A stretch of 64,000 nucleotides of DNA from a virus (IMGVR_UViG_3300021399_000121:43502-107501), one strand, 5' to 3'. Positions 3,456 to 57,768 are shown, counted from the stretch's first letter. Notes: a model not told the origin generated them from the letters alone. Made by a program: numbers and translations.

Positions 3456-6400
3456 ATGAGTACACAAACTGGTTCAATTAGTTTTGAATCTACTGGTACA
3501 ATAAGCCAGCATGTAAAACAAAACTATGCGACTTTGTCACAGATAAAAGGACAATTTGCTACAAGTAGTACTGGTGCAAGCACAGCCGCAAAAGTAGCTA
3601 CAATTGTTCCTCAGAATACTGGTTGAACTCTTTATACTGGTGCAACTGTGACAGTAAAATTTACAAGTAAGAATACAACAACAACGGCGCCCACATTAAA
3701 TGTTAATAATACGGGCGCCAAGCCTATTAAAGATTTTAATGGCAATGATTTAGATAGTGATGCTTATAATTGGCCTGCGGGTGCGGCTATGTCATTTACT
3801 TATGATGGAACCTCTTGGAGATTACAAGATAGTGATTTAATGGAACGTGTTCATAGTGCGGAAACAAAAATTGAACAAAATGCAGAAGATATTGCATTAA
3901 GAGCTACTAAAGAAGAAGTTAATAATGCTATAGATGATGTTAAAGTTACTAAATCTACATGTGGTAGAAGTATTGTAACTGAAGATGCTGCAGATTTACC
4001 TTTACTTAATTTAAGTATTTATGGTGAATGCCAGCAGGACGGGACGCCTACGCCAGACGCGCCAGTGGAGATTAGGAGTGTGCGGGGGAGGAACCTGCTG
4101 GACGTGCCAACTATCGATGAGGTAATCGAGAGGGATACGGGCGATAGCGGAACCTACCACACCATGCCGATTCAGCTCAAGCCGAACACGACCTATCACT
4201 TCACACCTTTCGTCGCAGACGGCTACGAAACGAAAATCGCCAACACGTTTATCCTAATCGCCGAATCCAGCAGCAATACCAACTGGAAGTCGTTCGCCCA
4301 TGCTTCGGTAGGAGCGGTAGGCGGCAACCTCAAAACTGGCGAAGATGGCAGGCTGTGGATAAACGTCTACAAGAATTCATCGTGCCGCGAAAACTATCCG
4401 ACCGTCATGGAAAACGTCAAGGGCATGCTCATCGAAGGCGGCGTTGCGGCAACACGCCATACCCCATACGGCACCGTCGCAGTCGTAGCTCGCGGAAGAA
4501 ACGCATGGAACGAAGCCTGGGAACTTGGAGCGTTCAACACGACAACTGGCGCTAACATCAACAATGGCACTCAGATACGCTCGAAGTACAGGCTGGAAGT
4601 GACGCCTGGCGAGACGTACTACATCGCAGCACCGTCGTATATCTGGATGATTTTCTACGACGGACGCAACAACGTCATAACGGAGGTGCCGTCTGGTAGT
4701 TATGCCAAAAACGGTTATTCGATAGGCTGCGGTGCTATTTACAGCCGCACAGTCACGATGCCAGACAATTGCCATAGCGTACGATTCTATTGCCAAAACA
4801 TGTACGGCACCACCTACAACAACGACATCTGCATCAACGTCAGCGACCCAGACTTCAACGGCCAGTACGAACCCTACAGGGAATCCGTGAGCTACATCGA
4901 CCTGAAGGGCGAGGAGCTGTGCAAACACTCGTCCACTGGTTCGAAATACCGCGACGTGCTTACGATTGACGCGAGCGGGCACGTGACGCTTGAGAAGCGC
5001 ACGCAGGTCGAGACGGTGACTGCTGTCGGCACGGCGGGCGGCACCACGACCAAGTACGCCTCTTTGACCGTCACGCCGAGAGCGAAGAGGTGGTCGAGCA
5101 GCGCCGACGCGGCAGCGGACGGCTACGGCAGCCACCTTTGGAACACGATGCTGGCGCAGGACGCAGCCGCCTACATTGGTGCGACGTGGAACAGCCTGTA
5201 CGCCTACGTCCCTCAATCCGAAGAATGGGAGCAAACCGATTTCGACAAGCTCGTGGGGATGAAGCTCGTTGACCTTCTGCCGCCGAAGGATTGGTACACA
5301 ATCGACCTCGGCTACATCGACCCGCCCACCACGTTCGACGGCGGCACCGTCCACGTGGAGGCCGAGATACAACCGCAAATATGTGGTTCATGATGGACAA
5401 AATCTGGTCAAGAAGCAGGTAATGCACATCAATCTTCAGTTAAAGAAAATGCAGAATTACGTATTGCCGCTGATGGAATTACTTCTGAAGTTTCTAAAAT
5501 TTCAAGTGTAAAATATGTTACCACTGTATATAATTATACTTTAACACAAATTAAAACCTATGCGGCAGAAGGGGATTCTTATAATTGAACCATAGCGAGC
5601 GATGATAGCATTAGAGTTGGAGATACTGTATATGTTAAAGTTCAAGATACTACTCGTACTTGCCCAGTATATATTAAAGTTAAAGTTACAGCGATTTCAT
5701 CTCCTGCCAGAATAACTGGTATATCGCATGGTTATGAAGATGTATTACCAGTTGATACTATTAAATCTACTATTAATCAGTCTGCCGATAGCGTTAAGAT
5801 TGCGGCAAATCATGTAGACATTGAGGGTGCCGCAATATTTAGTAGTGGTGGTGCTTATGATAAATCTACTACAGTAGTTAGTACTCAAACACAATGGTAT
5901 AGTTCTACTAGTGCTACATCCAAAAGTGGCGGAAGTTGAGGAACTACTCAACCTACTGTATCAGCTGGCAGATATATATGACAACGTGAGTTAGTAACCT
6001 ATGCTAATGGTACTACGGCTTATAAACCTTCTGAAGCTGGCGTTTGCATTCAAGGTCAAACAGATTTAAGTAGTTATAGCACTACGGCACAAGCAAATAA
6101 TTTATATGATGCTAAAGGTGCGGCAAATACAGTAAATAATGCCCTTGAAAACTATAAATCAACAACAAATACAACTTTACAGTCATTACAAAGTCAAGTT
6201 GATGGTCAAATTGAAGCATGATATATGGATGGAGCTCCCGCAGAAACATCTTATGCGGCAACTGCCACTCCAACAGATAGTGCTGCTAAAACGTGAACTA
6301 CAAAAGAATTAAAAGATAGACACCTCGGTGACATTTATTATGATATTAACACTGGTCATTCTTGGCGTTGGATGGAAGATGGCTCTAATTATAAATGACA

Positions 6401-8441: not shown

Positions 8442-10478
8442 ATGGCAGATGAAATAGGTGAGCTTGATTTAACAGCTCAGGCTAGTGCTGCTAAGACTGC
8501 TACTAATTATATGTTTTTTGACTCAACTAACGGACTCAAAATAGCATCTTCTAACCCATCTAGCGCAGAACGTAGAATACAAATTAAATCAAATGGCATC
8601 GGTATATACAATGATAATAATAATTATTCTTATATAGATTCTAACGGTATGAACATTTATAAAAACGGTAATTCTGTTGCCGCCTTTGGTGGTAGTACTA
8701 CTAGAATTGGTGAATCAGATAATCTACATATGACTCTTTTAAATGGTGGCATAAGGATTTATGAAAAAGAAGAAACCCCTTTCGCTGATTCTAGTACAGC
8801 TAAATTTACTGGAACAGAATCTGTCATTGGAGAAGTTAAAGACATTCATACTCAAATTTCATCGAATGGTTTTGGTATTTTAAATGGTGAAACAAAACTT
8901 TTTTCAATAGACACAGAGCAAAAAATGACAACCCATTCTCAAGATAGTTCACGAGAAGTAAAGCAATTAGTTTTTGATGAAGTTATTGGAGAAGGAACTA
9001 TTACAAATTCAACAAATGGTTATCTTAGTGGTAACGGTAATGTTCATACTAGTACTGATGATCCAGAATGATGTTGAATTTCTTCAAGTAAATTAAGAGC
9101 TAAACCTCAAATATTTCTTGATATGGCACAGTATTCAGATGATACTCAAAGAGAATGAGTTCCTATTGAAGAACTTGAAGGATATGCGTATTATAACTAT
9201 ACAGAGCCAGAAATTTATGATTCTGATAATTACCGTTTTTATTTTAGCGTACAAATTTATGATACTAGCTTATTACCTGTTAGATGAAAAATTGGTATTG
9301 CACATTATGAACGAAATTTAACCGTACAAATTGGTAAAAGTAATGAAAGCCACATGGAATTGGATTACCGCAGTCTACAGATGGTGGGCAAAGAAGGCGA
9401 TGCATATTTTAGAGTAAAGGATCTTAGAGATAACAATGGCCTGTACTCGGAGACTGTCGGTCGGCCTCTCGGTCTAACATTTGCTGCTAGTACTTTACCC
9501 AAAGTCGAGTGAGAGTACACGATAACCGACTATAAGGTGAAGCTTGCGAGCGACGGGAGCGATGATACCGCTAACTGACACCTCCAGGAGTCGAATATAT
9601 TAATACGCAATTCTGAGATAACTTCGCAAACTAGATATTTCATAACACTAACTACGAACTCAGAATATGCGAAGTCTTTTACATTCGGCCACAGAGGGTA
9701 CGAAGATGGCGAGATAACTGATGAGATGGAAGGCGGCTTGTCTGCATCCTTCGGTATGTACACATCGGCTACTGGAAGCGCATCTTTCTCAGAAGGAGAA
9801 AGGTCATCGGCATCAGGAGATTGTTCACATGCTCAAGGTGTCGGGACTGCTGCCACAGGGTACTCTTCTCATGCAGAGGGATATGGAACCATTGCGAACG
9901 GCAATTATTCGCACGCCCAAAATAACAGCACTATCGCATCCAGCGATAACCAAACCGCTCTCGGCAAGTATAATATCGAGGATGCCAACAACGAATATGC
10001 TGTAATTATCGGTAACGGCGCCGATGAAGACGATCCCTCTAATGCCCTGGCCGTCAAATGAAATGGCGATGTAGAAATAGACAACGGACGTATTGAGATT
10101 TCCGATAGTGGGTGAATTACTCCAACAATCAATAGCCCATTTGTAAAATATGATAATGCACGCACGCCGAGATACCGCAAGCTCAATGGTATGGTAGAGA
10201 TTCGTGGTGCTGTGAAGCCTACAAGTACAACGGCCATAAATGAAACCGTACGCACGTTATTCACACTCCCCGAAGGCTATCGTCCCACTAATTGCGAAGT
10301 AACAAAATTGTGCCAAGGCTCTAGCCGCAGAATATGGCTTCTTACTGTTAATACGAATGGCACCGTAATGGCAACAAGATTGAGGGATATGGGTGCAACG
10401 ACCTATCAGAGCACAGTCAATAACGAATGAATGATATTCGATGTAGTGTTCATGGCTGGCGGAGAAAACGTCTCATAA
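8442..10478 (+). CDS. Second tail-fibre protein carrying an ...S.A.G..SHAEG... fibre-repeat region, TGA-recoded. An alternative end is at the TGA at 10428-10430.
   Basis: RBS AAAGGAGAAAAT precedes ATG 8442. ORF 8442..9071, ORF 9726..10061 and ORF 10191..10430 share one frame and are linked by sense TGA codons (9069, 9072, 9159, 9282, 9510, 9573, 10059, 10110). The segment 9766-10055 encodes SASGDCSHAQGVGTAATGYSSHAEGYGTIANGNYSHAQ, a repeat typical of phage tail fibres. Confidence 0.5.
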
Positions 10479-10642
10479 AAAATATGTTGTAATTAAGATA
10501 AGACAGCAGTATATCCCATTATACTTATTATATATAAATTAACTAAAAAATTTTTGCATCTGTTAAAAATTTTTACACAAAAACCTATAATCTATATTGG
10601 CTAAAAATTATATATAATAGAAGATAAAAAAGAAAATAAAAG

Positions 10643-10950
10643 GTGGCTAATATGAAAATTATGCGAAAGCTTTATGACCAGTCTATGGAAGAACTAGACG
10701 GTGTAATAGAATATTCTAATTGTGCTACTTCATGTCGAGATAATTCAGATTTATCTAAAATGTACATCAATATGGCTAAGCAAGAATTAGAACATGCACA
10801 AATGTTACATAATATGTCTAAAAAATTAGCTGAAAGTAAGATAGGTGAAAATGTTGATCCTATGCTTATGGAACTTTGAGAAGAGATGGAACAAGCTAAA
10901 ATAGATAAAATGGCTTTAGCAAAAGCATATGTCACCAATGCAGAAGGATA
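10643..10950 (+). CDS. Small hypothetical protein; ORF 10643..10879 extended through an in-frame TGA to TAG.
   Basis: ATG lies behind an A/G-rich RBS. The frame continues past TGA 10877-10879 to TAG at about 10948-10950. Confidence 0.3.
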
Positions 10951-10959
10951 GGTGATTCT

Positions 10960-11374
10960 AATGCCTGTTGGACAATATAATAATTGAACACCAAATAATT
11001 GATCTGGTACATGGCAATGGAATCAACCCTATCAACCGCAAATGTCTTATAATAATAACAACAATAATATACAGCAGCCTGTCAGTAATATTTTACGTGT
11101 AACAGGCCCAGAAAGCGCTAAAGCTTACCCGGTATCTCCAAATTCTGATGTGGTATTATTTGATGGAGAAAAACCTATTTTCTATTGGAAATCTACTGAT
11201 GATAGCGGATTTGCTAGTATAAGAACTTTCACTTTTGAAGAACAAAAACAAGAAGAAGCTCAACCAATAGTTGAACAAATTGATACTTCAAATTTCATTA
11301 CTAGAGATGACTTAAAAGCATTAGAAAAAGATGTCTCTGAACTTAAAGAAATGCTAGAAGGGTTGGTAAATTAA
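10960..11374 (+). CDS. Small Asn/Gln-rich protein with two in-frame TGA codons near its N-terminus (MPVGQYNNWTPNNWSGTWQW...).
   Basis: ATG at about 10960 follows AGGATAGGTGA. The reading is continuous into ORF 11042..11374 when TGA codons at about 10984 and 10999 are sense. Confidence 0.4.
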
Positions 11375-11375
11375 T

Positions 11376-11600
11376 ATGACTAATCCACTATTTGATAAAC
11401 AACCTCAACCTGGAAATCAAGGAATTTTTGGTCTTATGAAACAATTAAAAGGCGGTGGAGCACAACAAATGTTTGATCAAATGTATCAAACGAATCCGCA
11501 ATTTAGAGATTTTGCTAATTCTATGAAAGGCAAAACTCCAGAACAAGCCTTCCAAGAGAGAGGGTTTGATTTTAATTCCTTTAAAGGTATGATAAATTAG
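11376..11600 (+). CDS. Hypothetical 74-aa protein.
   Basis: ORF track entry; the ATG overlaps the upstream stop (TAATATG). Confidence 0.4.
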   Translation: MTNPLFDKQPQPGNQGIFGLMKQLKGGGAQQMFDQMYQTNPQFRDFANSMKGKTPEQAFQERGFDFNSFKGMIN

Positions 11601-11662
11601 GTAACTACTAACAATAGTTAGTGGAAGATATACAAATTATCAAACGAAAGGATGATAACGTT

Positions 11663-12337
11663 ATGGCTGATATGACTTTAAGTGATATTGCTGCTCTAAA
11701 TCATGATAATGACGGTTGGGGAGGCGGTTGCTGGTGAGTTATTGTACTCTTCGCCCTCATTTTTGGTTGGGGTAATAATGGATTTGGCAACAATGGTTTT
11801 GCTAATGCAATTGGCTATGAAAATCTTGCAACTTCTAATGAAGTACAACGTGGTTTTGATAATCAAAACAGCATGGCAAATCAGCGTGAAATCCTTGCTG
11901 CGGTTAATGCTGGTACCGCACAATCTGTTGCAACCACAAATCAGACATTCCATGATATGCTAGGTGCTCTTAGTGATAAATACATGGAACTACAGCGTGA
12001 CATTGCGGGTTTAGCAGTTGGCCAAGCCAATGCTCTTGCTAATCAAAATCAATGTTGCTGTGACACTAAGATGCTAATTCAGGAGAATGCGGCACAGCAA
12101 CGTTATGAATCTGCTATGCAGAACAATGCTGTTATTCAAGCAATTCAAGCTGAAGGTGCTGCTACTCGTGAAATGTATCAGCAAGATAAGATTGAAGCAC
12201 TACAGAATCGTGTTAATCAATTACAGCTAGATCAAGCTATGCAAGGTGTTGTACGTTATCCTAACATGTTTGCATATAATGCTGGCGCCAATCCATTCTG
12301 CGGTTGCGGTAATGGTGGTTGCTGCGGCAATATTTAA
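11663..12337 (+). CDS. Gly/Cys-rich protein with one hydrophobic segment (VIVLFALIFGWG) and a C-terminal CGCGNGGCCGN tail. It contains one in-frame TGA.
   Basis: ATG 11663 lies behind GAAAGGATGA. It is in frame with ORF 11873..12337 when TGA at about 11735 is sense. Confidence 0.4.
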
Positions 12338-16026: not shown

Positions 16027-16953
16027 ATGACTAACTGTTTTAAACCTTACCTCCATGTTGAAAGATTGGGAAAAACAGAAGTTGATAATATTCTTTGTGG
16101 TACTGTAAGACTTACAGCAAAACTTGATGGTACTAATGCATCTGTGTGGGCAGACGAAGATGGTCGTATGCGTTATGGCAGTCGTAAACGTGAAATTTCT
16201 ATTGAAGATGATAATGCTGGTTTTGCCGCATGGATGAAATCTGATGCAGAAGAAGCTGCTCTCCTTATTCGTTTTTGTCAAGCTAATCCTCATATGATTG
16301 TTTATGGCGAATGGGGTGTATCTAAAGTAGGTGCAATTAAAAAGTATACTAAGGAAGCTATAAATAAACTTTGGATTTTTGATATTTATTCTCGTGAAGA
16401 AGAACGCTATCTCACTTGGGATGAATTCAATGCCGCACTTATTATGTATGATCTAATTGACTATCGAGTGAAGCTTCTGGCTACTTTGACTAACCCAACA
16501 CTTGAGGATATTATTAAGGTTGCAAATGAAAATACTTTCCTTCTTGAAGGAACTGACACTCTTGGAGAAGGTGTTGTAATTCGTAGAGACAATTATACAA
16601 ATTGCTATGGACGTTATGCTGTAGCAAAATATGTGCGGGAAGACTTTAGACCTGATACTCCAAGAGTAAAGAGAATTGTTCAGGCTGGCGAGATTGAACA
16701 AGATTTTATTAATCGTTATCTAACCCAATCTGAACTTGAGAAAGCTAAAGCTAAAACTGCTCTGGCTTGCGGTGAAGAATATGTTCCTGGTAATGGCAAG
16801 TTTATTGGTATGTTTCTTAATCTGCTCTGGAAAGATACTCTTGAAGAGAATATTGTAGATTTTTGTAAGCGTGCTAAGAATCCTCGAATTGATTTTGCCG
16901 CACTTAATGGTTTGATTAAAGCAGAAGGCCGCAAGTTCTTAGGGTTGATGTAA
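16027..16953 (+). CDS. ATP-dependent polynucleotide ligase of the Rnl2-like nucleotidyltransferase family.
   Basis: Motif I AKLDGTN (KxDGxN), motif III LWIFDIY, motif IV LGEGVVIRR and motif V YAVAKYV are all present. The length, 308 aa, is close to that of T4 Rnl2. Confidence 0.55.
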   Translation: MTNCFKPYLHVERLGKTEVDNILCGTVRLTAKLDGTNASVWADEDGRMRYGSRKREISIEDDNAGFAAWMKSDAEEAALLIRFCQANPHMIVYGEWGVSKVGAIKKYTKEAINKLWIFDIYSREEERYLTWDEFNAALIMYDLIDYRVKLLATLTNPTLEDIIKVANENTFLLEGTDTLGEGVVIRRDNYTNCYGRYAVAKYVREDFRPDTPRVKRIVQAGEIEQDFINRYLTQSELEKAKAKTALACGEEYVPGNGKFIGMFLNLLWKDTLEENIVDFCKRAKNPRIDFAALNGLIKAEGRKFLGLM

Positions 16954-18590: not shown

Positions 18591-19868
18591 ATGTCTTGGA
18601 ATCCTGTTTTAAATATGTTCATTGAAATAAAGAATGAATTTATTAAGGAGTGCGGCAAGGATGCTTTGTGGCAGTATGGCCGCGAGGATTCCTTTACTAA
18701 TTGTCTTTCCTATTGGGTGTGGACTCTTGGAAATCATGGTCATCCTAAGCGTCATTATTATTCTAAGGTGATTGAGCCTTTGCTTCTCAATGAGAGTATG
18801 GGTATGTTGCTTATTAAGTATAATGATCTTGGCATTGATTGGAATGCTTATGATGGTTTCTATCGTGAATGTCGGTCTGTTGTAATCGATGTACTTAATG
18901 ATTGTTTGGTTCTTACTCCTTTCCGTAAATTCTTTAATATTAATGAGCTTGAAGAAACTCAACTTCATGTTGTCCAAGAGAAGATAGATAATGCATCTAG
19001 GATAGAAATTACTGACAAGATTGATGGAAGTATGTGCGGTGCTCGTTGGTATCGCAAGGATCTTGTTATGTCTGGTTCTCAAGCTCTTGATATTAGTAAA
19101 TCTTATCGTTTGGAAAATTACTATCATTGGATGCATCAGCATGAAAATGCAGTACAAATGCTCAAAGATTATGATAATTTCACTTTTATTTTTGAAGGAG
19201 TTTTTCCTGATGATGTCCATATAGTACAGTATGACGAACAAATGTTCGGCTTGCATCTTCTTGGAATGCGGCGAGTAGAGGATGGCGTAGAATTACCTTA
19301 TAAGGATGTTGTAGAAATTGCAGAAAAGTATGATGTGCCGCATGTCAAAATTTTTGATATGACTTTTGAAGAGGCTTATCAGGATGCCCTTAATGATGGT
19401 CGTAAGGCCAATGAGGGCGAAGGGTATGTCATTGACATAGATGGTCAGAAGTATAAGCTCAAGTATAATGATTATGTTATGCTTCATCATGCTCTTTGTA
19501 AGATGGTTTCTCCTAATGCTATAATTGCAGCTATCCGTGAAGGCCGTTGGGATGATTTCTATTCAAAGATTCCTGTTGCATATCAACCGCAAGCTAAGGA
19601 AAAGGCTGATAATGTTTATAAATACGTACAAATGTTCGATGAACGTGTTATAAAGTGGTATAACCTCACTCGTGATTTTGTAGATTATACTAACGATCGC
19701 AAGACCTTTATGATTGCTGTTGATAAAGTTGTACCTAAGCAATATCAAGGGTCGGTACGTGCTAAGTTCTTAGGTCAAAAAATCGATTATTTCCGTGGTG
19801 TTAAGTACGGAGATATGATTGATTATATCGAGTTAATGCAGACTTTAACTTTAAATATTAAGGCTTGA
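18591..19868 (+). CDS. Second nucleotidyltransferase ligase, Rnl1-like. It ends at a TGA.
   Basis: Motif I KIDGSM (compare T4 Rnl1 KEDGSL), motif IV EGYVIDIDG and motif V KLKYNDYV. Confidence 0.45.
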   Translation: MSWNPVLNMFIEIKNEFIKECGKDALWQYGREDSFTNCLSYWVWTLGNHGHPKRHYYSKVIEPLLLNESMGMLLIKYNDLGIDWNAYDGFYRECRSVVIDVLNDCLVLTPFRKFFNINELEETQLHVVQEKIDNASRIEITDKIDGSMCGARWYRKDLVMSGSQALDISKSYRLENYYHWMHQHENAVQMLKDYDNFTFIFEGVFPDDVHIVQYDEQMFGLHLLGMRRVEDGVELPYKDVVEIAEKYDVPHVKIFDMTFEEAYQDALNDGRKANEGEGYVIDIDGQKYKLKYNDYVMLHHALCKMVSPNAIIAAIREGRWDDFYSKIPVAYQPQAKEKADNVYKYVQMFDERVIKWYNLTRDFVDYTNDRKTFMIAVDKVVPKQYQGSVRAKFLGQKIDYFRGVKYGDMIDYIELMQTLTLNIKA

Positions 19869-19937: not shown

Positions 19938-20432
19938 ATGACTCAATGTGATGAAGCTATCCGTCGTCAGTTGCGTAAGCCTACTGTGTATATTATGTGC
20001 GGCGTGCCTGGTTCTGGCAAGACATATTTTTGTAAGAACGTATTGATGGATCATCCTTGGCGTAGTCGAGTCTATATCTCTTCTGATGATATTCGTGAAG
20101 AGCTTTATGGTGATGCTAGTAATCAATCTCTTAATGGTATCGTTTTTGATATTTTTTATGAGCGTGCTCGTGAAGCTATCAAAAATGGTAGTGACGTAAT
20201 TCTTGATGCAACGCATCTGACTAAGAAATCTCGTCGCAAATGCCGCAATCATTTTAAAGATTTGGATTGTAAGTTTATTGTGGTTCAGATGAATACATCG
20301 ATATTGGATGCGGTTTATCGTAATAAGAAACGTGACAGGGTTGTCCCTGCTGATGCGATGAATCGCATGATTGAAGTATATCAGCCTGTTGAAGATAGCG
20401 AAGGTTTTGATTATATCTGGAAGGTAGATTAA
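19938..20432 (+). CDS. P-loop polynucleotide-kinase-like protein.
   Basis: Walker A GVPGSGKT lies near the N-terminus of a 164-aa protein. It is adjacent to a phosphoesterase and two ligases. Confidence 0.5.
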   Translation: MTQCDEAIRRQLRKPTVYIMCGVPGSGKTYFCKNVLMDHPWRSRVYISSDDIREELYGDASNQSLNGIVFDIFYERAREAIKNGSDVILDATHLTKKSRRKCRNHFKDLDCKFIVVQMNTSILDAVYRNKKRDRVVPADAMNRMIEVYQPVEDSEGFDYIWKVD

Positions 20433-20992
20433 TGATTTATCTAAGCTCAGATTTACATTTTGGACATGACCGTGGTTTTATCTATGAGCCGCGAGGATTT
20501 TCTAGTATCCAGGAGCATGATGAAGCAATCATTGAAAGATTTAATAGCGTTGTGCGGCCTGATGATGATCTCTATCTCTTGGGTGATCAAATGCTTGGTG
20601 ATAATGAACATGGTTTAGATTGTTTGCTACGGCTTAATGGTAAACTTCATATTCTTTGGGGTAACCATTGTACTAATGTGCGTAAAGAATTATATTATAC
20701 TCTTTCTAATGTTGTAGAGACTCTTGGATATGCGGGAATACTTAAATATAAAAAGTGGAGGTTTTATCTTTCGCATTATCCTACTATTACGGATAACCTT
20801 AATGATGTGTCTAAGCCTTGGGAACAAGTAAAATGTCTTTATGGACATACTCATCAAAAGACTAATTTCTATAGTGATAATCCTTTGCTTTATCATGTAG
20901 GCGTGGATAGTCATAATTGTTATCCTGTAAGTATTGATCAAATCATTGAAAATATTCAAGCTAAGTTTTTAGAATGTAAACAGATGCTTTAA
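20432..20992 (+). CDS. Calcineurin-like metallophosphoesterase.
   Basis: Motifs DLHFGHD, LGDQ and GNHC are present. The start overlaps the upstream stop. Confidence 0.6.
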   Translation: MIYLSSDLHFGHDRGFIYEPRGFSSIQEHDEAIIERFNSVVRPDDDLYLLGDQMLGDNEHGLDCLLRLNGKLHILWGNHCTNVRKELYYTLSNVVETLGYAGILKYKKWRFYLSHYPTITDNLNDVSKPWEQVKCLYGHTHQKTNFYSDNPLLYHVGVDSHNCYPVSIDQIIENIQAKFLECKQML

Positions 20993-21165: not shown

Positions 21166-22600
21166 TAAGGTTGAGAGAGTTAATAAGGTGCTTCTAAAGA
21201 AGAAACACAATATTAGGTTTCTTAACCTAATAACCTTGAAAACAGAATAGTTGAAGATTTAGGTGCAACTCAGTGCAGAGCGGTGTCAACGTGCTGAGGG
21301 TTCTTCTCAATGAGTTGAGACTCCTGAAGGATACTTCCGCAGTCAAGCTTTAAGGTGAATCGTGAGGTTTACTTTAGAAGGTAGGAACTACCAACAAAAT
21401 GAAGAATGCGCTTAGTCTATTTGCTAAGGAAAGATACTTGTAAATTGTCGTCTCCGCAATAGACGCCCCAGTGGGGAAGAATCCAGAACACTTATTAACA
21501 GGTGGTGCTGAATAAGAAAAAGCTGGAAATACCAATAAGGAGATTGAGCTGTTGACTCTCTGGTAACAGAGGGAATAAGACAAGGGCAAGGTTCGAGTAG
21601 CACAAAGCAGCTCCTTATATTAATGAATATTAGGAGAATATATTAATGCTGAAAGACGTGTGAAAGTTGTGGGTAATCATTCCTACGGTAGAGATGGCCT
21701 TAACGGCTGGGGTAAGAAGTATGACGGTCGCTCCGATATACTCAGCCTTATCTCCTACATGATCGAATATCCAGTAAATAGATGCGGTACAGTGAAGACT
21801 GGCATGTATATCTTCAACTATTCTGTTTGAAGGAATTGACGTAATAGTTCGTTCGCGTCATTAAATAAAACGGCATCCTGGTTAGGCAGGTTTATAAAAG
21901 AGAGTAGCCTAACATGCTCTCTAGTGTGATTTAGTGTATACAGAGTAAGGCTTTTTATTGCTGATTGGCCCGCTGCGTACTTCTTGACATGGTTAAAAAC
22001 CGCAGAAAAGAATTCAGCAACCCGGAAGATTGGTCTAAGACTGTGCTAGGAAAAGGCTAAAAAGACTAGTTACGTAACTGGTATGCGGACACCGCTCGGT
22101 AGAGAAAGTCCGCAACGTAGCTTAAAGGGCTGAGATAACTGCTAAACAGTTTATGCCTTAGAGGGCATTTATAAAAAATGCTTTCTTAGGTATATTTAAT
22201 GCCAGTGTAGTGAGAATCGACTACACTATAAAATAAAATCATGATTCTCTGGTTTTGAAATCACCTGAACCAAAAAGAATTTCTGTTTTTATGTGTTTGA
22301 ACGAAATCAAGTACATCCCGCGCAAGATAGGGTGATGATCTTGCCGCAAGTCTATGCGTAAAGTAAAGATCGCTTGTAGGTTAAGAGCGTCAGAACCTTC
22401 TGTAGTTTATACTTTCTCTACGATAAGGGTGGTGCCTATGAAAGTATCTTCTCTTGGAGGATATACCTATATATCTAAAAATCATATCAGCCATAACGGG
22501 TATATCTTCCAAAAGGAGTAATCCTATTGTCGTTGCGAGCATGCCGATAAGACGTTAAACTATTTCGTATGCGGTGGTCGTGTTACACCTTACCCAACAC
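21166..22600 (+). ncRNA. Candidate large structured ncRNA of the GOLLD/ROOL class by genomic context.
   Basis: About 1.4 kb with no ORF longer than about 70 aa in six frames. GC is about 45-50%. A consensus promoter lies directly upstream and the 17-tRNA array directly downstream. Confidence 0.35.
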
Positions 22601-22609
22601 TTTTATTTT

Positions 22610-23325: not shown

Positions 23326-23396
23326 TGGCGATTAGTTCAATAGTAGAACTCGGGCCTTTGGCACCCGTAACGGGGGAGCGTTACCTCCATCGCCAG
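23326..23396 (+). tRNA. tRNA-Gln (anticodon TTG). Position 1 is U, as in bacterial tRNA-Gln.
   Basis: Acceptor TGGCGAT/ATCGCCA, loop CTTTGGC, atypical T-loop AGCGTTA. Confidence 0.5.
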
Positions 23397-28413: not shown

Positions 28414-29100
28414 ATGAAAAAAATAATTCTTTTAATATTGATTATTTGTATATGCATTTTAACTGGATGCAATAAATCACAAATAAATGAATCAAAACAA
28501 GAAACTTTTTTATTACCATTAAAAGAACAATTTTTTGAAGAACCAAAGGCACAAAAAGATACGGTTGTAATTAAAAAACAAAAAGAAAAAAAAGAAAACA
28601 ATGGTTTAATAGAAGAAGAAGAAAAAAATAATAATCTAATAGAAGAAGAAAATTATGTTGAAAATGTTGTAACAGAGGAATATATTGAAGATGTTCCAGT
28701 AGAAGAGTATGTTGAAAATGTTCCGACAGAAGAGTATGTTGAAGATACATCTTATAAAGAAGATATTGCTCCAATAGAAGAACAAGAAAATAATGTATCC
28801 ATACAAGAAGAAAAAAATAATAGTGCAGATATAAATAATTCTAATTTAACTCAACAATCTGGGGTTAATTATTATGACGGTCGTACGGAAACATATTATT
28901 CTTCAAATGCTTTATATCATAAAGATACTGATCAATGGACAGTAGATGATGAAGGTTTCTATAGAACTGATGAAGGATATTATGTAGTTGCGGCTAGTGA
29001 TATGCCGCAAGGTACTACTTTTGAAGGTAGTAAAGGTACTTGTATTGTATTAGATAGCGGCTGCGAAGAAGGCGTAACAGACTATTATACTAATTTTTAA
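28414..29100 (+). CDS. Lipoprotein with a Glu-rich repeat region.
   Basis: Signal peptide MKKIILLILIICICILTGC with lipobox LTGC; EEEN repeats. Confidence 0.5.
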   Translation: MKKIILLILIICICILTGCNKSQINESKQETFLLPLKEQFFEEPKAQKDTVVIKKQKEKKENNGLIEEEEKNNNLIEEENYVENVVTEEYIEDVPVEEYVENVPTEEYVEDTSYKEDIAPIEEQENNVSIQEEKNNSADINNSNLTQQSGVNYYDGRTETYYSSNALYHKDTDQWTVDDEGFYRTDEGYYVVAASDMPQGTTFEGSKGTCIVLDSGCEEGVTDYYTNF

Positions 29101-29312
29101 ATATAAACAAATGCCTGTTCGACTCAGGCTCGGTCCTCCTGTGGGCTGATCGTTTAAGTACGGCAAGACTTGTTTTAAAATATTTGTTGACGGTTGTTTA
29201 ATTTTTATGCTATAATATATACATAAGGTAAGGGAGATAATTATTCGAATTAATTGCTGTCTCTCTTGGATGATTAGTTTAAAAGAAAAAATAATTAAGC
29301 CTTAAATTTTTA

Positions 29313-29342
29313 ATTGACAATTAAATAAAAAATATGTTATAA
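29313..29342 (+). promoter_or_regulatory. Consensus promoter firing into an ORF-free block. A second tandem promoter lies at about 29172-29205.
   Basis: TTGACA at 29313-29318 and TATGTTATAAT ending at 29342. Confidence 0.5.
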
Positions 29343-29349
29343 TATAAAT

Positions 29350-30110
29350 ATAGAAAAGGGAAAGTTAAACATTCTCGCCAATATCAACCAAAGCGGTTCC
29401 GGGAGCAACGATTTGGAGAGACGGCCTAGACGCGGGTGTGGGAAGTGATGCCACATAGCGAAAAACGAGAGTGGGGAGTAGCTACCCCAGGAATTGGTCG
29501 GGATACAACGAGAAGGCTCGTACCGAGTAAACCTAAGTCGAAGGTAAGAATGTTTAACTATTCGTTTTCTGAAACGAAGTACAAAAGAGATGGGTTCTCC
29601 ATTCTCGTATAAGGTTGATAGTCCTTTCAAACTAAACTATCCGTCCATGCGTGATGACGTTAAAAGCTAACGTATAGCGAAAGGTTGACGAACCAAGTAG
29701 CGGCGTAAGGGTTTTCTTATGCTTTCTTTTCCAACAATGCTTCGGCCGTAAGCAGCCACGTGATAAGTGGTATAAAGAAAGCGCCATAGAGATGGTGACA
29801 GGTCCGATTGAATGCTGAAGCTCATGCGAACTCGGTAAGCGAGTTAGGGTACAAAGGCTAAACCCTCCGAGTAATGTGCACGTAGTTTGTTAACTCTTCT
29901 TCTGCGAAAGCCGAACCAAAAAAGAAGAGAAATTGATACTGAATGGTCAAGGAAAAGACAGAAAAACCAAAGTCGTGTGAAGACTATAAAGCTCGGCTGG
30001 TTTTGTGGACATAGGCAAAGAACTTCCTACCAGAAAAAATATTAGGAAGGGGTTTTTCCAGCGGCAGGTTGTGAGTCCTGATAAAGTGCGTAAAGACGCC
30101 ACCCGCATTT
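29350..30110 (+). ncRNA. Candidate structured ncRNA (about 760 nt) immediately upstream of tRNA-Cys and tRNA-Ser.
   Basis: No ORF of 75 aa or more. GC is about 48%. It is promoter-driven. The minus-strand ORF 29337..29630 is likely an antisense artefact. Confidence 0.35.
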
Positions 30111-30117
30111 ATTTTAT

Positions 30118-30197
30118 GCGCATATGGCGGAGTCTGGTCGATCGCAACGGCCTGCAAAGCCGTATAATCGTTAGTTCAAATCTAACTATGCGCTCCA
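30118..30197 (+). tRNA. tRNA-Cys (anticodon GCA).
   Basis: Acceptor GCGCATA/TATGCGC, anticodon stem ACGGC/GCCGT with loop CTGCAAA, T-arm GTTAGTTCAAATCTAAC, CCA encoded. Confidence 0.55.
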
Positions 30198-30201
30198 ATA
30201 T

Positions 30202-30294
30202 GGAAGTGTGGCCGAGTGGTTGATGGCGCTTCTCTGCTAAAGAAGTAGGCGATGTAGAGTCGTTTCCGGGGTTCAAATCCCCGCACTTCCTCCA
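30202..30294 (+). tRNA. tRNA-Ser (anticodon GCT), type II.
   Basis: Acceptor GGAAGTG/CACTTCC, anticodon stem CTTCT/AGAAG with loop CTGCTAA, long variable arm, CCA encoded. Confidence 0.55.
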
Positions 30295-30400
30295 GATATT
30301 CTATAGGGTAACTGTAAATTATACAGTTGCCCTATTTTTTTATTTGACAACTTATATTTTATATATTATAATATAAGTATAAAAGAAAGGAGGATAGATA

Positions 30401-33036: not shown

Positions 33037-33219
33037 ATGAGTAAAATTAATATAAAAGCATTAATTTGTACTATTATAACTCTTATATTAATTCCTTTAC
33101 TTACCTATGCCGTATTAACGAATGCTATTCTTTTTATAATTGTTGGAATAATATTGGGTATTATTGTAATTATAGTACTTTTTTATGGATTATATGTATT
33201 TTTTGATGAATGCTTTTAA
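33037..33219 (+). CDS. Small membrane protein with two TM helices.
   Basis: ORF track entry; hydrophobic throughout. Confidence 0.4.
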   Translation: MSKINIKALICTIITLILIPLLTYAVLTNAILFIIVGIILGIIVIIVLFYGLYVFFDECF

Positions 33220-34055
33220 AGGAGATAGCAGTGCCATACTTAAATGATATTGATATTAATAAGCGTTTACACGAACATCTTCTTCATTATATAAATACTT
33301 ATAATAAAGATTGGTTTGTTATTTGTGCTCAAGGGTCAATGAATTATGGCCTTGTAGACGAAGAGTCTGATGTAGATTCTAAAGTATTGGTTATTCCTTC
33401 GTTAGAAGATATTGTACTTAATCGCAAACCAATTAGCAATACTCTTGAAATGCCTGATAACCAAGAGCATGTAGATTGTAAGGATGTGCGGGAATACTTT
33501 AAGATTTTCCGCAAGTCAAATATTAACTTTGTTGAAATTTTATTTACTGATTATTTTATTGTAAATAATAAGTATTATGATCTTTGGAATAGGTTGCGGG
33601 AGAATGCGGAAGGATTAGCAAGGATTAATCCTTATGCCGCAGTTTCTTGTATGAAAGGCATGGCGAGTGAGAAACGACATGCTCTGTGCCATGAATACCC
33701 AAGCCGCATGCCCTGGATTGAAAAATTTGGATATGATCCAAAACAGTTATCACATCTAGTTCGTATTAATTATTTTATTAAATGGTATATTGAAGGTGCT
33801 CCATATAAAGATTGTATTAAACCAAAGAAAAAATTTATTCGTGACTCTCTCTTGGGATGTAAACGAAATGGATGGGGACTGTCTAAAGAACAAGCAGAAA
33901 CTAAAGCAGATGAATTAATGGAAGAAATTATTAAAATAGCTGATGATTTCCGCAAAGATCATCCTAATGAAAATGATCCTTTAATGGATTCTCTTTTGGA
34001 TAAAACTCTTTATGATTTAATTAGTAGGTCATTAAAAGCAGAATTAGGAGTATAA
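33210..34055 (+). CDS. Pol-beta-fold nucleotidyltransferase-like protein.
   Basis: GSMNYGLVDEESDVD fits the GS...D.D signature of minimal nucleotidyltransferases. Confidence 0.4.
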   Translation: MLLKEIAVPYLNDIDINKRLHEHLLHYINTYNKDWFVICAQGSMNYGLVDEESDVDSKVLVIPSLEDIVLNRKPISNTLEMPDNQEHVDCKDVREYFKIFRKSNINFVEILFTDYFIVNNKYYDLWNRLRENAEGLARINPYAAVSCMKGMASEKRHALCHEYPSRMPWIEKFGYDPKQLSHLVRINYFIKWYIEGAPYKDCIKPKKKFIRDSLLGCKRNGWGLSKEQAETKADELMEEIIKIADDFRKDHPNENDPLMDSLLDKTLYDLISRSLKAELGV

Positions 34056-39989: not shown

Positions 39990-40496
39990 ATGACCTGGAC
40001 AGTCCAAGAGATAGAGAAATATATGTCTGAATTGGCCGCAAATATTGGCTTAGAATTTGGTACTCCTGTCAAGATTAATGGAAGACTTACTCGTACTCTT
40101 GGAAGGGTTACTGCGGAACCTACGGCATTTGATGTTTATGAACCGCGAGTAATTGAATTTAGTAAACAGTTTCTTGAGACTTCTACTGATGAAAGTGTGC
40201 GGCAAACTATTCTCCATGAGTTTGCACACTGGGCTGTTATAATTGAAACTGGTGAGACTCATGGTCATGATGCAGTTTTCAAAGCTATGTGCCGCAAGAT
40301 AGGTTGTAGTGCAGATCGGCCGCAAACTAAAGTTGAACGTACTGTAAGTGATGATAAAATTTTTAAATATATCGTTAAATGTGATGAGTGCGGCAATGAG
40401 ATGCACTATAATCGAGCCGGAGAAGTTGTTAAACATCCTGACTTGTATGAATGCGGCAACTGTGGAGGAAGCTTAAGGGTGATTCAAAATTGGTAG
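39990..40496 (+). CDS. SprT-like zinc metallopeptidase-fold protein with a C-terminal zinc ribbon.
   Basis: HEFAHW followed by GETHGHD (HExxH...H); CDECG...CGNCG. Confidence 0.45.
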   Translation: MTWTVQEIEKYMSELAANIGLEFGTPVKINGRLTRTLGRVTAEPTAFDVYEPRVIEFSKQFLETSTDESVRQTILHEFAHWAVIIETGETHGHDAVFKAMCRKIGCSADRPQTKVERTVSDDKIFKYIVKCDECGNEMHYNRAGEVVKHPDLYECGNCGGSLRVIQNW

Positions 40497-41952
40497 AAAT
40501 CAATCCTTTAGCAATTTTTATTGGAGTTATTTTTGGATGGATAATTGGTAAATCTTGTTCATCTGATAGAGAACTTACAATATGGCTCATTATTATTATA
40601 TTTCTTTTTATTCTTAGCCTTATAATATGTCTTAATTTTTAGGAAACCTGGTTAGAAGGTTATGATGAAAAACTAAGGGTGGTTCAAAATTGGTAGAGAT
40701 TGTGGTAACATCAATAATAGTGAGTGTTCTTGTTAATATCTTTTTAAATTCTTTATTCGGAGAGAGGTAAGAGATGTTTGAAGATATTGCTAGGAATTGG
40801 CTTGAGAATCGATCTGGTATGCAGTATGATGATATGGTTCTTAATGAACTTGTAGATGACCTTGCGGTTATACTTATGAATGTTTATGAAGCTGGTCGTA
40901 GTTACGGATATAGTGAGGGTTTAGAAGAAAATTTAACTGAACTTCAATGGTAAGGGTTTAATATGAAATTGAAAGAGTTCTGTGTTGATCAAAAATGGTG
41001 TTTAGGCTTTGCAGAAGTTAGACGTTTTATTTCTAGTAAGGTTATTCAAATTAATGATATTACTGCAACAGATGCGGATATAGAACTAAAAAATGGTGAT
41101 ATTGTTAAATTTTTACCATGTCGAGAAGCAATAGTAAAGGAGAATTAAATGATTACTTTATGCCAATTGATTGATTCTGTAGCATGGCTCAATCCGCAAG
41201 AACATATGAAGATTTCTTTGTGGGATAAGTCTAAACTTTATGAGAATGACGAATATAGAGATATTGAATTAACTGTTCGTAATTTTGCTAAGTATGCTAA
41301 TTATCAGATAGGTGATCTTGATATTGAATATGATAATAAAGATAATGCTTACCTTAGCTGTATGATTTGGAAGGATTAATTATGAATTATTGGAGTAGAG
41401 TTACCGGTATTCAAAGTACAATTGGTATTGTACTTTTAATGATTTTTATTATACTTGCGGCGCTTGCTGCTAGTTGGGGACTTACATGTTTGATTGTCTA
41501 TTGGATTAGTTTACTTTGGGCAGGAACCGTATTTGCTTTTGAATGGTCATGGGTATTTGCAACTGGTATTTGGCTTGCTCTTTGTCTTATTGGTAGTTTT
41601 TGTCAAGCGAGGATAAATTTTAATGACTAATGGTGAAGTGTTCGTATCAGTGGCAGAGGCTCTGCGCCGCAAAATCCAAGAGGAAGGTAAGAGCTTAGAT
41701 GATGTAGATTTTATAATGGTTGGTAATTTAGGTTTAGATGTTGATGACTTTTGGGAGATTGCGGAACTTTGGAAATGGGATATTAATCAACTTAAAGATG
41801 AATTTAGAATAGTTTTTAAAGATCATACTTGGATTAGTAAACATTATAGTCGTAATGGTGATGTGCGGCTTAAGTATCATGGGCTATTTGAGAAGCCTAT
41901 GTGTATTCTGACACATCCTATGCCGAGTGAATTTTTAGATGGATAATGTATA

Positions 41953-42291
41953 ATGGATAGTCAATATTTTACTTCTGGTTTTAGTTATGGTTTTATTTTT
42001 GCTGAGATAGCCGCAACTCCAAGTAAATGTAAAAAATGTGGAGAATATCCTAAAATTTGGCATTATAATAATGCTTGGCAGGTTGAATGTGATTGCGGTC
42101 GAGTATCAGATATGTTAATTACTGTTGCTGTAAATAATTGGAATGAAATTTATGGGGATAGTTCTAATTATACTACAGTTCTTAATATTTGTGAACTAAA
42201 TGCTTCAAAAAAGAGTACTACAGATTATTTAAATGAACAGATGCGGCAATGTTGTTGTGATTATAGTCATATAATGAATATAAAAAGTTAA
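41953..42291 (+). CDS. Zinc-finger protein.
   Basis: CKKCG ... CDCG ... CCCDYSH. Confidence 0.4.
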   Translation: MDSQYFTSGFSYGFIFAEIAATPSKCKKCGEYPKIWHYNNAWQVECDCGRVSDMLITVAVNNWNEIYGDSSNYTTVLNICELNASKKSTTDYLNEQMRQCCCDYSHIMNIKS

Positions 42292-42360
42292 TAAAATTTT
42301 TATTGACTGGTGAATAATAATTATGGTATAATATAATTGTTAAGAGGAAGGAATTATATT

Positions 42361-42639
42361 ATGCTTACTGCGGCAGATGCTCGTAAAATTTCTCAAAGTG
42401 TTGGTGAACAAGATCATTTTGAAAAATATGCAAAAAGAATAGTTGATAATATTCTTTATGGAATACGAAGTGATGCTAATGCTGGTTATCATGAACATTC
42501 TATTGATCTTGATCATTGTCCGAAAAAGGTTCGTGGATTAGTGATTTGTAAATTAGAAAATCTTGGTTATAACGTTAAAAAGCGAGGATTCTTTTATAAC
42601 TTTTCATTGAATCCAAATTTGTATGTTGTTAGTTGGTAA
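42361..42639 (+). CDS. Member 1 of a tandem paralogue triplet.
   Basis: Conserved promoter at 42290-42335. The same RBS, AAGGAATTATATT, and the N-terminus MLTAADARK are seen in the triplet. Confidence 0.45.
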   Translation: MLTAADARKISQSVGEQDHFEKYAKRIVDNILYGIRSDANAGYHEHSIDLDHCPKKVRGLVICKLENLGYNVKKRGFFYNFSLNPNLYVVSW

Positions 42640-42650
42640 GGAATTATATT

Positions 42651-42908
42651 ATGCTTACTGCTAAGAAAGCTCGTGAATTAGCTAATGATTTTGAGAGACG
42701 TGAACAAGCTAAAAAATACGTAGGAGATCAGATACTTCCGCAAATTGAGAAACATGCTCTTAGAGGAAATACTGAATTGATTTTTGAAATAAATAAACCT
42801 GAATTAGAGAGTTTTATTGCTAGTGAATTAGAAAATTTAGGTTATTATGTAGAAAAATTAAATGGCAATATTTTTAATTTGCGTGCTATGTATCTTATTA
42901 AATGGTAG
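42651..42908 (+). CDS. Member 2 of the tandem paralogue triplet.
   Basis: Identical RBS; N-terminus MLTAKKARE; the ENLGY motif is shared. Confidence 0.45.
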   Translation: MLTAKKARELANDFERREQAKKYVGDQILPQIEKHALRGNTELIFEINKPELESFIASELENLGYYVEKLNGNIFNLRAMYLIKW

Positions 42909-42917
42909 GAGAGTAAT

Positions 42918-43172
42918 ATGATAAGTGCCGCAGAAGCTCGTGAAATTACTAACAATGGTGATAAGTATACTGATGTTAAAGAAAAAATCGAAAAATTATC
43001 TCCAGTGATTGAAGAAAGGGCTGAACAAGGTTATAATTATATAGTAATTTTTATTTCACCAGAAGTTGAAAATTTATATACTCATGTTTTAAAACGTCTT
43101 GGTTATAAAATTGAGAAAAAGTTAAATATAAAGTATTTAGAATATTATTATATATATCGAATTAGTTGGTAG
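42918..43172 (+). CDS. Member 3 of the tandem paralogue triplet.
   Basis: N-terminus MISAAEARE; the RLGY motif is shared. Confidence 0.45.
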   Translation: MISAAEAREITNNGDKYTDVKEKIEKLSPVIEERAEQGYNYIVIFISPEVENLYTHVLKRLGYKIEKKLNIKYLEYYYIYRISW

Positions 43173-43417
43173 TCCAAAAGAAAGAAAGAAATGAAAGATA
43201 CTTATTATGTGCGGCGTAGTGAGAATGATGATGTAACAAGATTTGATACAACTATTGTTCAAAATTTATCTAAGTTTGTTACTAGATTATCTACTCCGAA
43301 TAGAATGGATGCTTTAAAGAGTGCGGCTGAGAGTGCAATTTTAAATCCTGGTTATGTTTATATAGTTTATAAGAATAATCGTACGATAGCTCAGTTTATA
43401 GTGGTAAAGGAGTAAAC

Positions 43418-43798
43418 ATGACGGCTTGTGGAGCTTTGATTTATGGGTTTGCGGCTAAGGCTGATGATATTACGCAGATGCCGCGAGTAGATTCTTACCG
43501 TGACAGAGACGGCCGCACAGTCCTTATTGATAATGATGATGTTCATCCTATTGAGTGGGCTATGGAACATCATAAGTATGGTCAATATGTATTTGTTGAG
43601 GATGATCAGCTATGGTATTCTGACAGGGTTATTTTCGGTATCTTTCTAGGTGAATCTGGGGATGAACTTGATCTCGAAAATATGGAAGAGGTCAAGGCTA
43701 GAGCTAAGGATATTAGTGAAGCTGTAAAGTTCTTCACTGATTGGGATACTGATATTAGTGATTATGGATATCATATTTGTACTATGTATGATTATTAG
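43418..43798 (+). CDS. Hypothetical 126-aa protein.
   Basis: ORF track entry. Confidence 0.4.
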   Translation: MTACGALIYGFAAKADDITQMPRVDSYRDRDGRTVLIDNDDVHPIEWAMEHHKYGQYVFVEDDQLWYSDRVIFGIFLGESGDELDLENMEEVKARAKDISEAVKFFTDWDTDISDYGYHICTMYDY

Positions 43799-57618: not shown

Positions 57619-57768
57619 GGCCAGGTTGTATTCAGCTACACTCTAGAACGGAGCGTAGGCCAGTTCTCCAGCGTTGGGCTGTGCCGCAATCCACATCTCG
57701 CAGTCAACCTCACAGACCAACCCTTCCTTGACGACCTTGCCAGTAGCCTTCTCGAATACTGTCCACAT
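57619..57768 (-). CDS. About 49-aa protein, MWTVFEKATGKVV...APF. It is paralogue 1 of a pair.
   Basis: Conserved leader AGGAAAGGACAGGACATG. Its sequence aligns with the product of 57960..58091. Confidence 0.35.

Follow-up and report, generated by a model that had tools for sequence, protein, structure and literature searches.

A large modular RNA family with multiple pseudoknots, probably self-assembling, at the head of tRNA genes in uncultured phages

A 64,000-nucleotide (nt) stretch of viral DNA, IMGVR_UViG_3300021399_000121:43502-107501 (hereafter the window, meaning this whole stretch at its full length), contains between positions 29350 and 30110 a segment of elevated GC content and without a conserved open reading frame (ORF), which lies directly 5' of two tRNA genes. 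What does this segment specify? A first-pass annotation made from the sequence alone had suggested a large non-coding RNA (ncRNA) co-transcribed with the tRNAs, and had raised the question whether it is paralogous to another block at 21.2-22.6 kb. Our comparative analysis revealed a conserved, covarying RNA family with multiple pseudoknots at the head of phage tRNA genes. We put at roughly 70% the probability that positions 29350-30117 correspond to an approximately 760-nt member of an uncatalogued family of large, modular, multi-pseudoknotted ncRNAs, which heads a tRNA operon and probably self-assembles.

Homologues of the segment were obtained by several routes. The 217-amino-acid (aa) ORF downstream led to two contigs of the IMG/VR database with the same RNA, and a 20-mer from the most conserved block returned five true metagenome loci together with four chance matches. 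The 228-aa ORF upstream has 780 database relatives; the contigs of some of these gave seven more loci representing five distinct sequences, and a later round of synteny with the same ORF added two more divergent members, L066 and L067 (labels of this form denote database contigs). Altogether, 13 loci including the window, representing about 10 lineages, carry the RNA, with a length ranging from 659 to 1247 nt, and all of them come from uncultured phage or metagenome contigs, whose record names suggest rumen and gut as the source metagenomes. Other searches yielded no further members. In IMG/VR, five DNA motifs and a gapped signature returned only the same two contigs plus a chance coding match (L009), and the upstream 322-aa ORF gave no relatives. 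An 18-mer motif had 26 matches in the GTDB species genomes, all of them coding or chance and none a family member. Among 50,697 GenBank phage records, blastn with 'distant' settings gave no match to the RNA, and megablast of 20 kb against the GenBank phages gave a 38-nt match only. No RNA copy was found in the temperate-phage homologues of the C-terminal domain of the upstream protein (L054 and L059-L065).

The helices of the RNA were derived from compensatory changes in alignments of these loci and then counted. The 5' domain, D1 (29352-29641), which is the signature of the family, is built of the helices P1 (29364-29375 with 29547-29558), P2 (29388-29392 with 29412-29416, closing the loop UCCGGGA at 29398-29404), P4 (29437-29441 with 29451-29455), P5 (29465-29469 with 29517-29521), P6 (29472-29476 with 29485-29489, with the loop AGUAGCUA), P8 (29561-29567 with 29572-29578) and P9 (29587-29593 with 29599-29606), of the pseudoknot P7 (29498-29501 with 29523-29526), and of an H-type pseudoknot in which AAGG (29611-29614) pairs with CCUU (29623-29626) and GAUAG (29617-29621) with CUAUC (29637-29641); these and all the RNA features below are on the plus strand. 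The results showed that, over 10 sequences, 95.6% of the alignment cells in the 62 pairs of D1 are standard pairs, distributed over 10 helices with the two pseudoknots among them. Changes on both sides were observed in 25 pairs (70 cells), a level reached by none of 500 shuffles. When the 3' partners were slid by 1-3 columns as a control, only 38-46% of the cells were paired and 1-5 pairs were doubly changed. A covariance model of 116 D1 positions recovers every member with one match per locus, including members held out of its building (L067 at 96.5 bits and L066 at 42.7 bits), and finds nothing in the ROOL RNA regions of the window, L048 and L053, in three loci of GOLLD RNA or in 12 other phage loci. 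A pairing of the 5' tail with UUCGUUUUCU proposed by RNAalifold was rejected; the local hairpin P8, which covaries by eye, was preferred.

In the window, D1 is followed by a linker of 10 nt (29642-29651) and by the central domain D2a (29652-29875), for which covariation supports eight helices. Among them is the hairpin Pd, formed by UGCUU (29738-29742) and AAGCA (29750-29754) around the loop CGGCCG (29743-29748). In nine sequences, the 38-39 pairs of D2a are 92-93% paired, versus 33-45% when slid, and 8-9 pairs are doubly changed. The motif CUCGG in this domain has two alternative partners, a local CGAG and a distal CCGAG, which are not separable. D2a is found in 9 of the 13 loci; it is absent from L051, L053 and L067, and the contig of L066 ends before it. 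In relatives, the junction between D1 and D2a is occupied by 290-400 nt of variable modules, tRNA-like genes among them: such inserts are located at 2837-2909 in L002, 4841-4912 in L003, 14411-14483 in L014, 11177-11243 in L048 and 5763-5838 in L056. ARAGORN labels the L002, L003 and L014 inserts 'tRNA-???' with a 2-nt anticodon. By our own reading of the sequence, the anticodon arm of the L002 insert is GGCCC-GCAA-GGGCU, in which a GNRA tetraloop (GCAA) replaces the anticodon loop; therefore, this insert cannot decode. A further tRNA-like insert of L003 is located at about 5125-5215.

The 3' part of the RNA begins with a variable hairpin region (29876-29996), delimited by sequence comparison without statistics, whose stem CUCUUCUU/AAGAAGAG is partly common to L057. 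It is followed by module X (29997-30059), an H-type pseudoknot supported by covariation around the invariant loop CAUAGGCAAAGA. Stem Xa pairs CUGGU (29997-30001) with ACCAG (30029-30033), and stem Xb pairs CUUCC (30023-30027) with GGAAG (30045-30049), after which comes the conserved GGGUUUUUCC. Since the MAFFT alignment misplaced the 3' strands of X, its pairs were checked by a script on explicit stems. Xa occurs in five versions (CUGGU/ACCAG, GUUGG/CCAAC, ACCGG/CCGGU, ACGUGU/ACACGU and GAGUG/CACUC) and Xb in four, all of them fully paired. Module Y (30061-30106) is a three-way element with a T-loop-like arm, GCGG-CAGGUUGUGAGUCCUG-...-GUGCGUAAAGACGCCAC-CCGC, recognised by its near-invariant sequence; because that sequence is too conserved, covariation says nothing on Y. 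X is missing from L048 and Y from L067, and Y, which follows X in the window, precedes it in L010 and L057. A module of about 70 nt (GCGGGAAGAUA.GGUU...CACCACUGGCCUCCGC...GGCGCUCUAAAAA) was also seen to recur at differing positions within the RNA across lineages (about 4741-4810 in L003, 11077-11146 in L048, 5955-6020 in L056, 8264-8330 in L057 and 6912-6985 in L067), behaving as if it were a mobile structural cassette.

The annotation's view of the segment as a large ncRNA is borne out by this covariation in three separate domains and by the lack of a conserved ORF or a protein-family match. The elevation in GC content that it described is clear, 0.43-0.46 over 29350-30100 versus 0.25-0.31 in the flanks, and its term 'ORF-free' holds in the sense that no ORF is conserved: the longest are of 97 aa on the minus strand and 58 aa on the plus strand, neither of which had a match in a Pfam scan. 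Protein-coding similarity in relatives, one of the findings that the annotation had regarded as decisive against its own proposal, was looked for, and there is no conserved frame and no protein-family match. The homologues do contain stop-free stretches of 72-108 aa, none of them conserved, and the frame of the 97-aa ORF is broken by 1-nt insertions or deletions among close relatives. The RNA is assigned to the plus strand because of its G-U pairs and the co-oriented promoters, tRNA genes and terminator.

Self-assembly is suggested by the loops. The loop of Pd, CGGCCG in the window and L013, reads UCUAGA in L002, L014, L048, L010 and L057, ACUAGU in L003 and ACCGGU in L056. The loop of P2 reads CUGCAG in L002, L003 and L010, (U)CCUAGG(A) in L057, L051, L053, L066 and L067, UCCGGGA in the window and L056, and UCCUGGA in L013 and L048. 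The loop of P6 reads UAGCUA in ten loci, AUGCAU in L066 and UAGCUU in L067. L051 and L053 have no Pd but an extra hairpin inside Y, tipped with GGUACC or AUUGCAAU. A perfect 6-nt palindrome is present in 11 of the 15 variants of the Pd, P2, P6 and Y-insert loops, and in none of the 20 variants of the control loops P4, Pe and P8. Counted loop by loop, palindromic variants number 4/4 for Pd, 4/6 for P2, 2/3 for P6 and 2/2 for the Y insert. For Pd, the joint chance was calculated as about 6e-6 with a uniform composition and as about 2e-4 with composition-preserving shuffles. Loops that stay palindromic through change are the mark of the kissing-loop class comprising OLE, GOLLD, ROOL and HYER1/5, and such loops were found here.

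Because adjacent loop nucleotides cannot pair within a hairpin, and the palindromes of different loops are not mutually complementary, homotypic loop-loop pairing between molecules is the simplest reading, and the hexamers of the core loops most likely form symmetric kissing contacts between copies of the RNA. The same argument from palindrome switching has been made for the symmetric kissing loops L9.3 of OLE and L21a of GOLLD, which were seen by cryo-electron microscopy (cryo-EM) (Kretsch et al. 2025; PMC12286853), and HYER1/5 ribozyme dimers likewise need palindromic pairing (PMC12990946). Homo-oligomerisation of the new RNA is what we infer from this signature.

How would such an RNA be made? 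The annotation had placed two tandem promoters at about 29172 and 29313. Both are present in a consensus scan, the first of them about 15 nt downstream of the annotated position. The main promoter (29314-29343) is a perfect TTGACA-18-TATAAT of the TG-extended type (12/12 consensus), and a like TTGACA/TATAAT pair precedes the RNA in L002, L003, L048, L056, L057 and L066. The upstream promoter-like site (29187-29216), TTGACG-18-TATAAT and also TG-extended (11/12 consensus), is kept in L002, L003, L013 and L066. Transcription would proceed from the main promoter, placing the start at about 29350, and possibly from the upstream site too. The tRNA-Cys(GCA) and tRNA-Ser(GCU) genes are where the annotation had put them, at 30118-30197 (Rfam tRNA model, 60.8 bits) and 30202-30294 (57.6 bits), respectively, both called by ARAGORN on the plus strand. 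They lie, as it had estimated at about 5 kb, 4964 nt beyond the end of the main array at 25154, which has 16 tRNAs by ARAGORN. Downstream of tRNA-Ser, the scan found a terminator-like hairpin (30303-30335) of 14 bp with a T-run, kept in L003, L013 and L048, which is probably the end of the operon. A promoter upstream, no strong terminator before the end of tRNA-Ser, and an order and strand shared by every homologue with available downstream DNA point by their anatomy to co-transcription of the RNA with the tRNAs.

Between the two promoters lies M2 (29217-29313), a T-arm-like hairpin module with a weak fold score (z -1.3) and no Rfam match in a scan of 29060-29360 at E<=10. In a comparison by eye, without a computed alignment, L010 and L051 carry its homologue within the 5' domain of the RNA, and L066 carries it between the promoters. 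M2 is probably an optional accessory module of the RNA; a transcript from the upstream site would be longer and would take in M2, which suggests a longer isoform bearing this module. Further upstream, directly past the stop of the 228-aa ORF, positions 29098-29186 (plus strand) fold as a circularly permuted cloverleaf (z -2.4), consisting of a T-arm-like hairpin (GCCUG-UUCGACU-CAGGC), a capped stem, a D-arm-like hairpin and an outer closing stem. This element has no Rfam match, and compensatory changes accompany its conservation in L051 (8505-8590) and L010, where it stands just ahead of tRNA-Thr. The promoter region of the RNA has many weaker nhmmer matches in the window (about 14589, 18007, 19872, 20985, 23800, 32589, 34248 and 45613) and in related loci, indicating a repeated phage promoter consensus, TTGACA...TGnTATAAT with an AT-rich spacer.

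On the basis of these features, we propose the following course of events. A consensus sigma-70 promoter would drive a small operon led by the RNA and continuing with tRNA-Cys, tRNA-Ser and the terminator; the RNA would presumably be released by an RNase P cut at the 5' end of tRNA-Cys, which would set its 3' end. As the covariation shows, it folds into the 5' domain with two pseudoknots, joined by the linker to the eight-helix centre, the 3' pseudoknot module and the T-loop-like three-way module. Its functional form may be a homo-oligomer held by kissing loops, in analogy to OLE, ROOL and GOLLD, which assemble from RNA alone. Speculatively, its role may be tied to the tRNA and RNA-repair programme of the phage and be equivalent to that of ROOL, whose slot it takes in some relatives.

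Several observations weigh against this proposal. The phage contigs that supplied the homologues are all related and form a narrow set; because of this relatedness, the shuffle statistics are inflated and the independent events are few. The single-sequence folding energy is ordinary (z = -0.84), so the structural argument rests on covariation and not on thermodynamics. D1 is the sole part common to all members; D2a, X and Y are all missing from one member or another, and there is no fixed architecture. As to the loops, the P2 variants UCCGGGA and UCCUGGA are self-complementary only as 3+3 around a central mismatch, the P6 variant UAGCUU keeps only 4 bp, and the outermost pair of the palindromes could extend the stem, leaving 4-nt palindromes. 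Consensus sites are the basis on which the RNA would be transcribed, would have the ends given here and would share a transcript with the tRNAs.

Is the segment a new family at all? An Rfam check was suggested in the first-pass annotation. A gathering-level scan of the whole window gave nothing at 29350-30110, and at E<=10 the interval 29150-30320 gave the two tRNAs and noise only (an RNase P class B fragment at 9 bits and microRNA models). The divergent member L010 (1900-3450) likewise had no RNA-family match in Rfam 15 at E<=10, and the other scanned loci had no gathering-level match for the new RNA. The block at 21.2-22.6 kb turned out to consist of a full-length ROOL RNA (RF03087; 21245-21821, plus strand, 331 bits, E 1.7e-75) and a leader of the tRNA array. 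The suspected paralogy did not hold up, for neither nhmmer nor the covariance model of the new RNA found any likeness between the two.

tRNA genes lie 3' of the new RNA on the same strand in every locus for which downstream DNA is available, with sets varying between Cys plus Ser, Ser alone, and the main Thr-Asp-Gly array of 10-19 tRNAs. The RNA heads the main array in L010, L057, L051, L053 and L067. In the window, ROOL and a homologous leader head the Thr-Asp array instead. In the array-heading group, leader modules come after the RNA; they are homologous to 22200-22609 of the window, a stretch which sits between ROOL and the array. Because both precede a homologous leader and the main array, the slots of the new RNA and of ROOL at the heads of tRNA operons are equivalent; the two RNAs coexist in the window, L048 and L053. 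The whole interval of about 790 nt between ROOL and tRNA-Thr (21822-22609, plus strand) is outside ROOL and looks like a conserved tRNA-array leader. Within it, about 22202-22239 and 22501-22609 are homologous to leader modules ahead of the Thr-Asp array in L010, L051, L053 and L057, of which one is a hairpin followed by UAAAAAUAAAA and another is GUCGUUGCGAGCAUGCCGAUAAGACGUUAAACUAUUUC.

This constant position raises the possibility that the segment acts only in cis, as a structured leader or spacer of the tRNA operon such as a scaffold for RNase P/E processing or for stability, with no function as a released RNA and no self-assembly. The RNA is always directly upstream of same-strand tRNAs, and tRNA-like modules are embedded in or flank it, as such a leader would predict. 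However, a conserved multi-domain structure of 660-1250 nt with several pseudoknots far exceeds known tRNA leaders, dedicated strong promoters stand ahead of it, the same RNA precedes the three differing tRNA sets, and palindrome-switching loops have no obvious role in processing in cis. We regard a purely cis-acting element as unlikely.

A giant partner of a phage Ro60 (TROVE) protein, similar to a Y RNA, in which tRNA-like modules and stems tether Ro60 or nucleases in the manner of YrlA, is very unlikely in our judgement. Bacterial YrlA RNAs have a tRNA-like domain. The tRNA-like inserts of the relatives, including that of L002 with its GCAA tetraloop by our reading, are in keeping with such a role, and a TROVE/Ro60 gene is found, co-oriented, about 3.5-4.5 kb upstream in L051, L053, L057 and L067. 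Yet a Pfam scan of the 18 real window ORFs detected no TROVE domain, and the genes called in the RNA-bearing L048 and L056 include none either. The combination that marks a Y RNA or YrlA, a match to a Y-RNA model (sought in the window and L010) with an adjoining Ro60/TROVE gene, was not found, and the size and architecture are far past those of known Y RNAs.

We give hardly more than slight credence to a highly divergent GOLLD or ROOL that the Rfam models missed. The niche is the same, the size is similar, and the new RNA has a variable linker capable of holding tRNAs with conserved domains on either side, as described for these classes (PMC12286853); one loose motif likeness, AAAGCAAAAGUCUU in GOLLD versus AUAGGCAAAGAGCUU in the new RNA, can be added. 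Nevertheless, with permissive filters neither the GOLLD model (RF02032, threshold 150 bits for the conserved 3' domain) nor the ROOL model (RF03087, threshold 99.1 bits) matched the new RNA at E<=10 in the window or L010. The same models score 331 bits on the ROOL of the window and 165-216 bits on the distant GOLLDs of phiCbK, PegLeg and vB_VpS_PG07 (Caulobacter, Mycobacterium and Vibrio phages), whose coordinates were taken from the published alignment of Kretsch et al. The reverse covariance search was empty in the GOLLD loci and ROOL regions, and nhmmer found no likeness to the ROOL block. Finally, a degraded or unusual protein-coding region, or a remnant of a mobile element such as a group I/II intron or an insertion sequence-associated guide RNA, can practically be dismissed, because although the 97-aa and 58-aa ORFs exist and the variation of inserted modules suggests mobility, the ORFs have no Pfam match and are unconserved and interrupted as described above, substitutions in helices are compensatory rather than synonymous, no intron, ribozyme or guide-RNA family was found at E<=10 in the window or L010, and no transposase or endonuclease gene adjoins.

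The region around the new RNA is a phage island of RNA repair and tRNA genes. A Pfam scan of the window identified an Rnl2-like RNA ligase (16027-16953), a T4 Rnl1-like RNA ligase (18591-19868), an AAA_33/Zeta-type kinase (19938-20432), a metallophosphatase (20432-20992) and an RlaP nucleotidyltransferase (33210-34055), and some relatives also encode Ro60/TROVE or Thg1 nearby. Since the two ligases, kinase, phosphatase and RlaP are encoded in the neighbourhood, the function of the RNA would be narrowed toward phage tRNA operons and RNA repair. Neighbouring genes across the window and its relatives further encode an LPXTG pilin-like protein and a teichoic-acid-type transferase; the hosts are probably Gram-positive, and the phages uncultured and of low GC content.

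Some other features of these genomes were observed in passing. The Rfam tRNA model reports a tRNA at 23326-23396 (plus strand, 42.2 bits) that is not in the ARAGORN list. ARAGORN calls a tRNA-SeC-like gene with anticodon UCA, a reader of UGA, in L053 (17312-17408) and L057 (11637-11733) and none in the window; it is possibly a suppressor tRNA or a sign of stop-codon recoding. Long ORFs are sparse in the window: its 64 kb contain only 52 that reach 120 aa, several of which overlap an ORF on the other strand, and multi-kb stretches have none of this length (for example, 9071-11873, 40496-43418 and 55663-57972). These stretches may contain many small genes or other non-coding elements, or may reflect an alternative genetic code.

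What would the new RNA mean if our interpretation is right? ROOL and GOLLD, recently shown to be protein-free cages, are the two such phage tRNA-island classes in the searchable literature, in which neither the new family nor any further phage RNA class like them was found described. We suggest tentatively, at somewhat less than even odds, that the new RNA represents a third class of self-assembling giant phage RNAs, unrelated by descent to the other two, with exchangeable modules and several orthogonal two-fold kissing contacts (P2-P2', P6-P6', and Pd-Pd' or a substitute hairpin). If so, it may form a dihedral oligomer or a cage, with an interior-facing linker able to carry tRNA-like cargo without a normal anticodon loop, and its coexistence with ROOL would mean that one phage deploys several distinct RNA assemblies in its tRNA and RNA-repair programme. 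A third class with an unrelated fold in the same slot would point to convergence on a common function. The modularity of the family supplies natural deletion and swap variants, that is, members without D2a, X or Y or with X and Y permuted. From the self-complementary loops follow predictions that are direct and cheap: multimerisation should be lost when a loop is mutated and regained with a compensatory palindrome. The RNA would thus be a target for cryo-EM and for the engineering of RNA nanostructures.

Among known systems, OLE is encoded on the chromosome of extremophilic Firmicutes and acts together with membrane proteins. The palindrome in its L9.3 loop switches between GGCC, GAUC and AGCU, which was read as a sign of a homodimeric kissing loop and then borne out by cryo-EM, and several loops of the new RNA show the same pattern; OLE differs in having no sequence likeness to the new RNA (no Rfam match) and no link to phages or tRNAs. 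YrlA and the Y RNAs resemble the new RNA in that tRNA-like modules sit within a larger RNA rich in stems, and four relatives have a TROVE/Ro60 gene in the vicinity; in contrast, the new RNA is five to ten times larger and has no match to the Rfam Y-RNA models.

The closest analogues are GOLLD and ROOL, and like both of them the new RNA is found in phage DNA beside tRNA genes. GOLLD forms an RNA-only nanocage as a 14-mer. With GOLLD it shares the tRNA-island niche, a length of about 800 nt and a two-part layout with a variable linker that sometimes holds tRNAs, as observed in L002, L003, L014, L048 and L056 and reduced to the 10-nt linker in the window, as well as symmetric kissing loops, here predicted, whose palindromic cores switch between lineages (PMC12286853; PMC12990946). 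It differs in that the universal part is the 5' domain in the new RNA and the 3' domain in GOLLD, and in that the embedded tRNA-like elements of the L002 group are without a normal anticodon loop, according to our reading of L002. ROOL assembles from RNA alone into an octameric cage, in part through kissing loops (PMC12286853), and the new RNA bears the sequence signature expected of symmetric kissing loops. Both are encoded by phages (or prophages in the case of ROOL) at the head of or beside tRNA arrays, and ROOL, at 500-800 nt with multiple pseudoknots and a variable internal linker, is comparable in build. On the other hand, searches in both directions detected no likeness by sequence or covariance model, the two have different helices and conserved motifs, the new family gains, loses or permutes whole modules (D2a, X and Y), and the two RNAs co-occur in one genome and so are not simple mutual replacements. 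The new RNA belongs to neither ROOL nor GOLLD by the covariance models that define them, and it resembles both in niche and layout, as a giant ornate RNA of phage tRNA islands.

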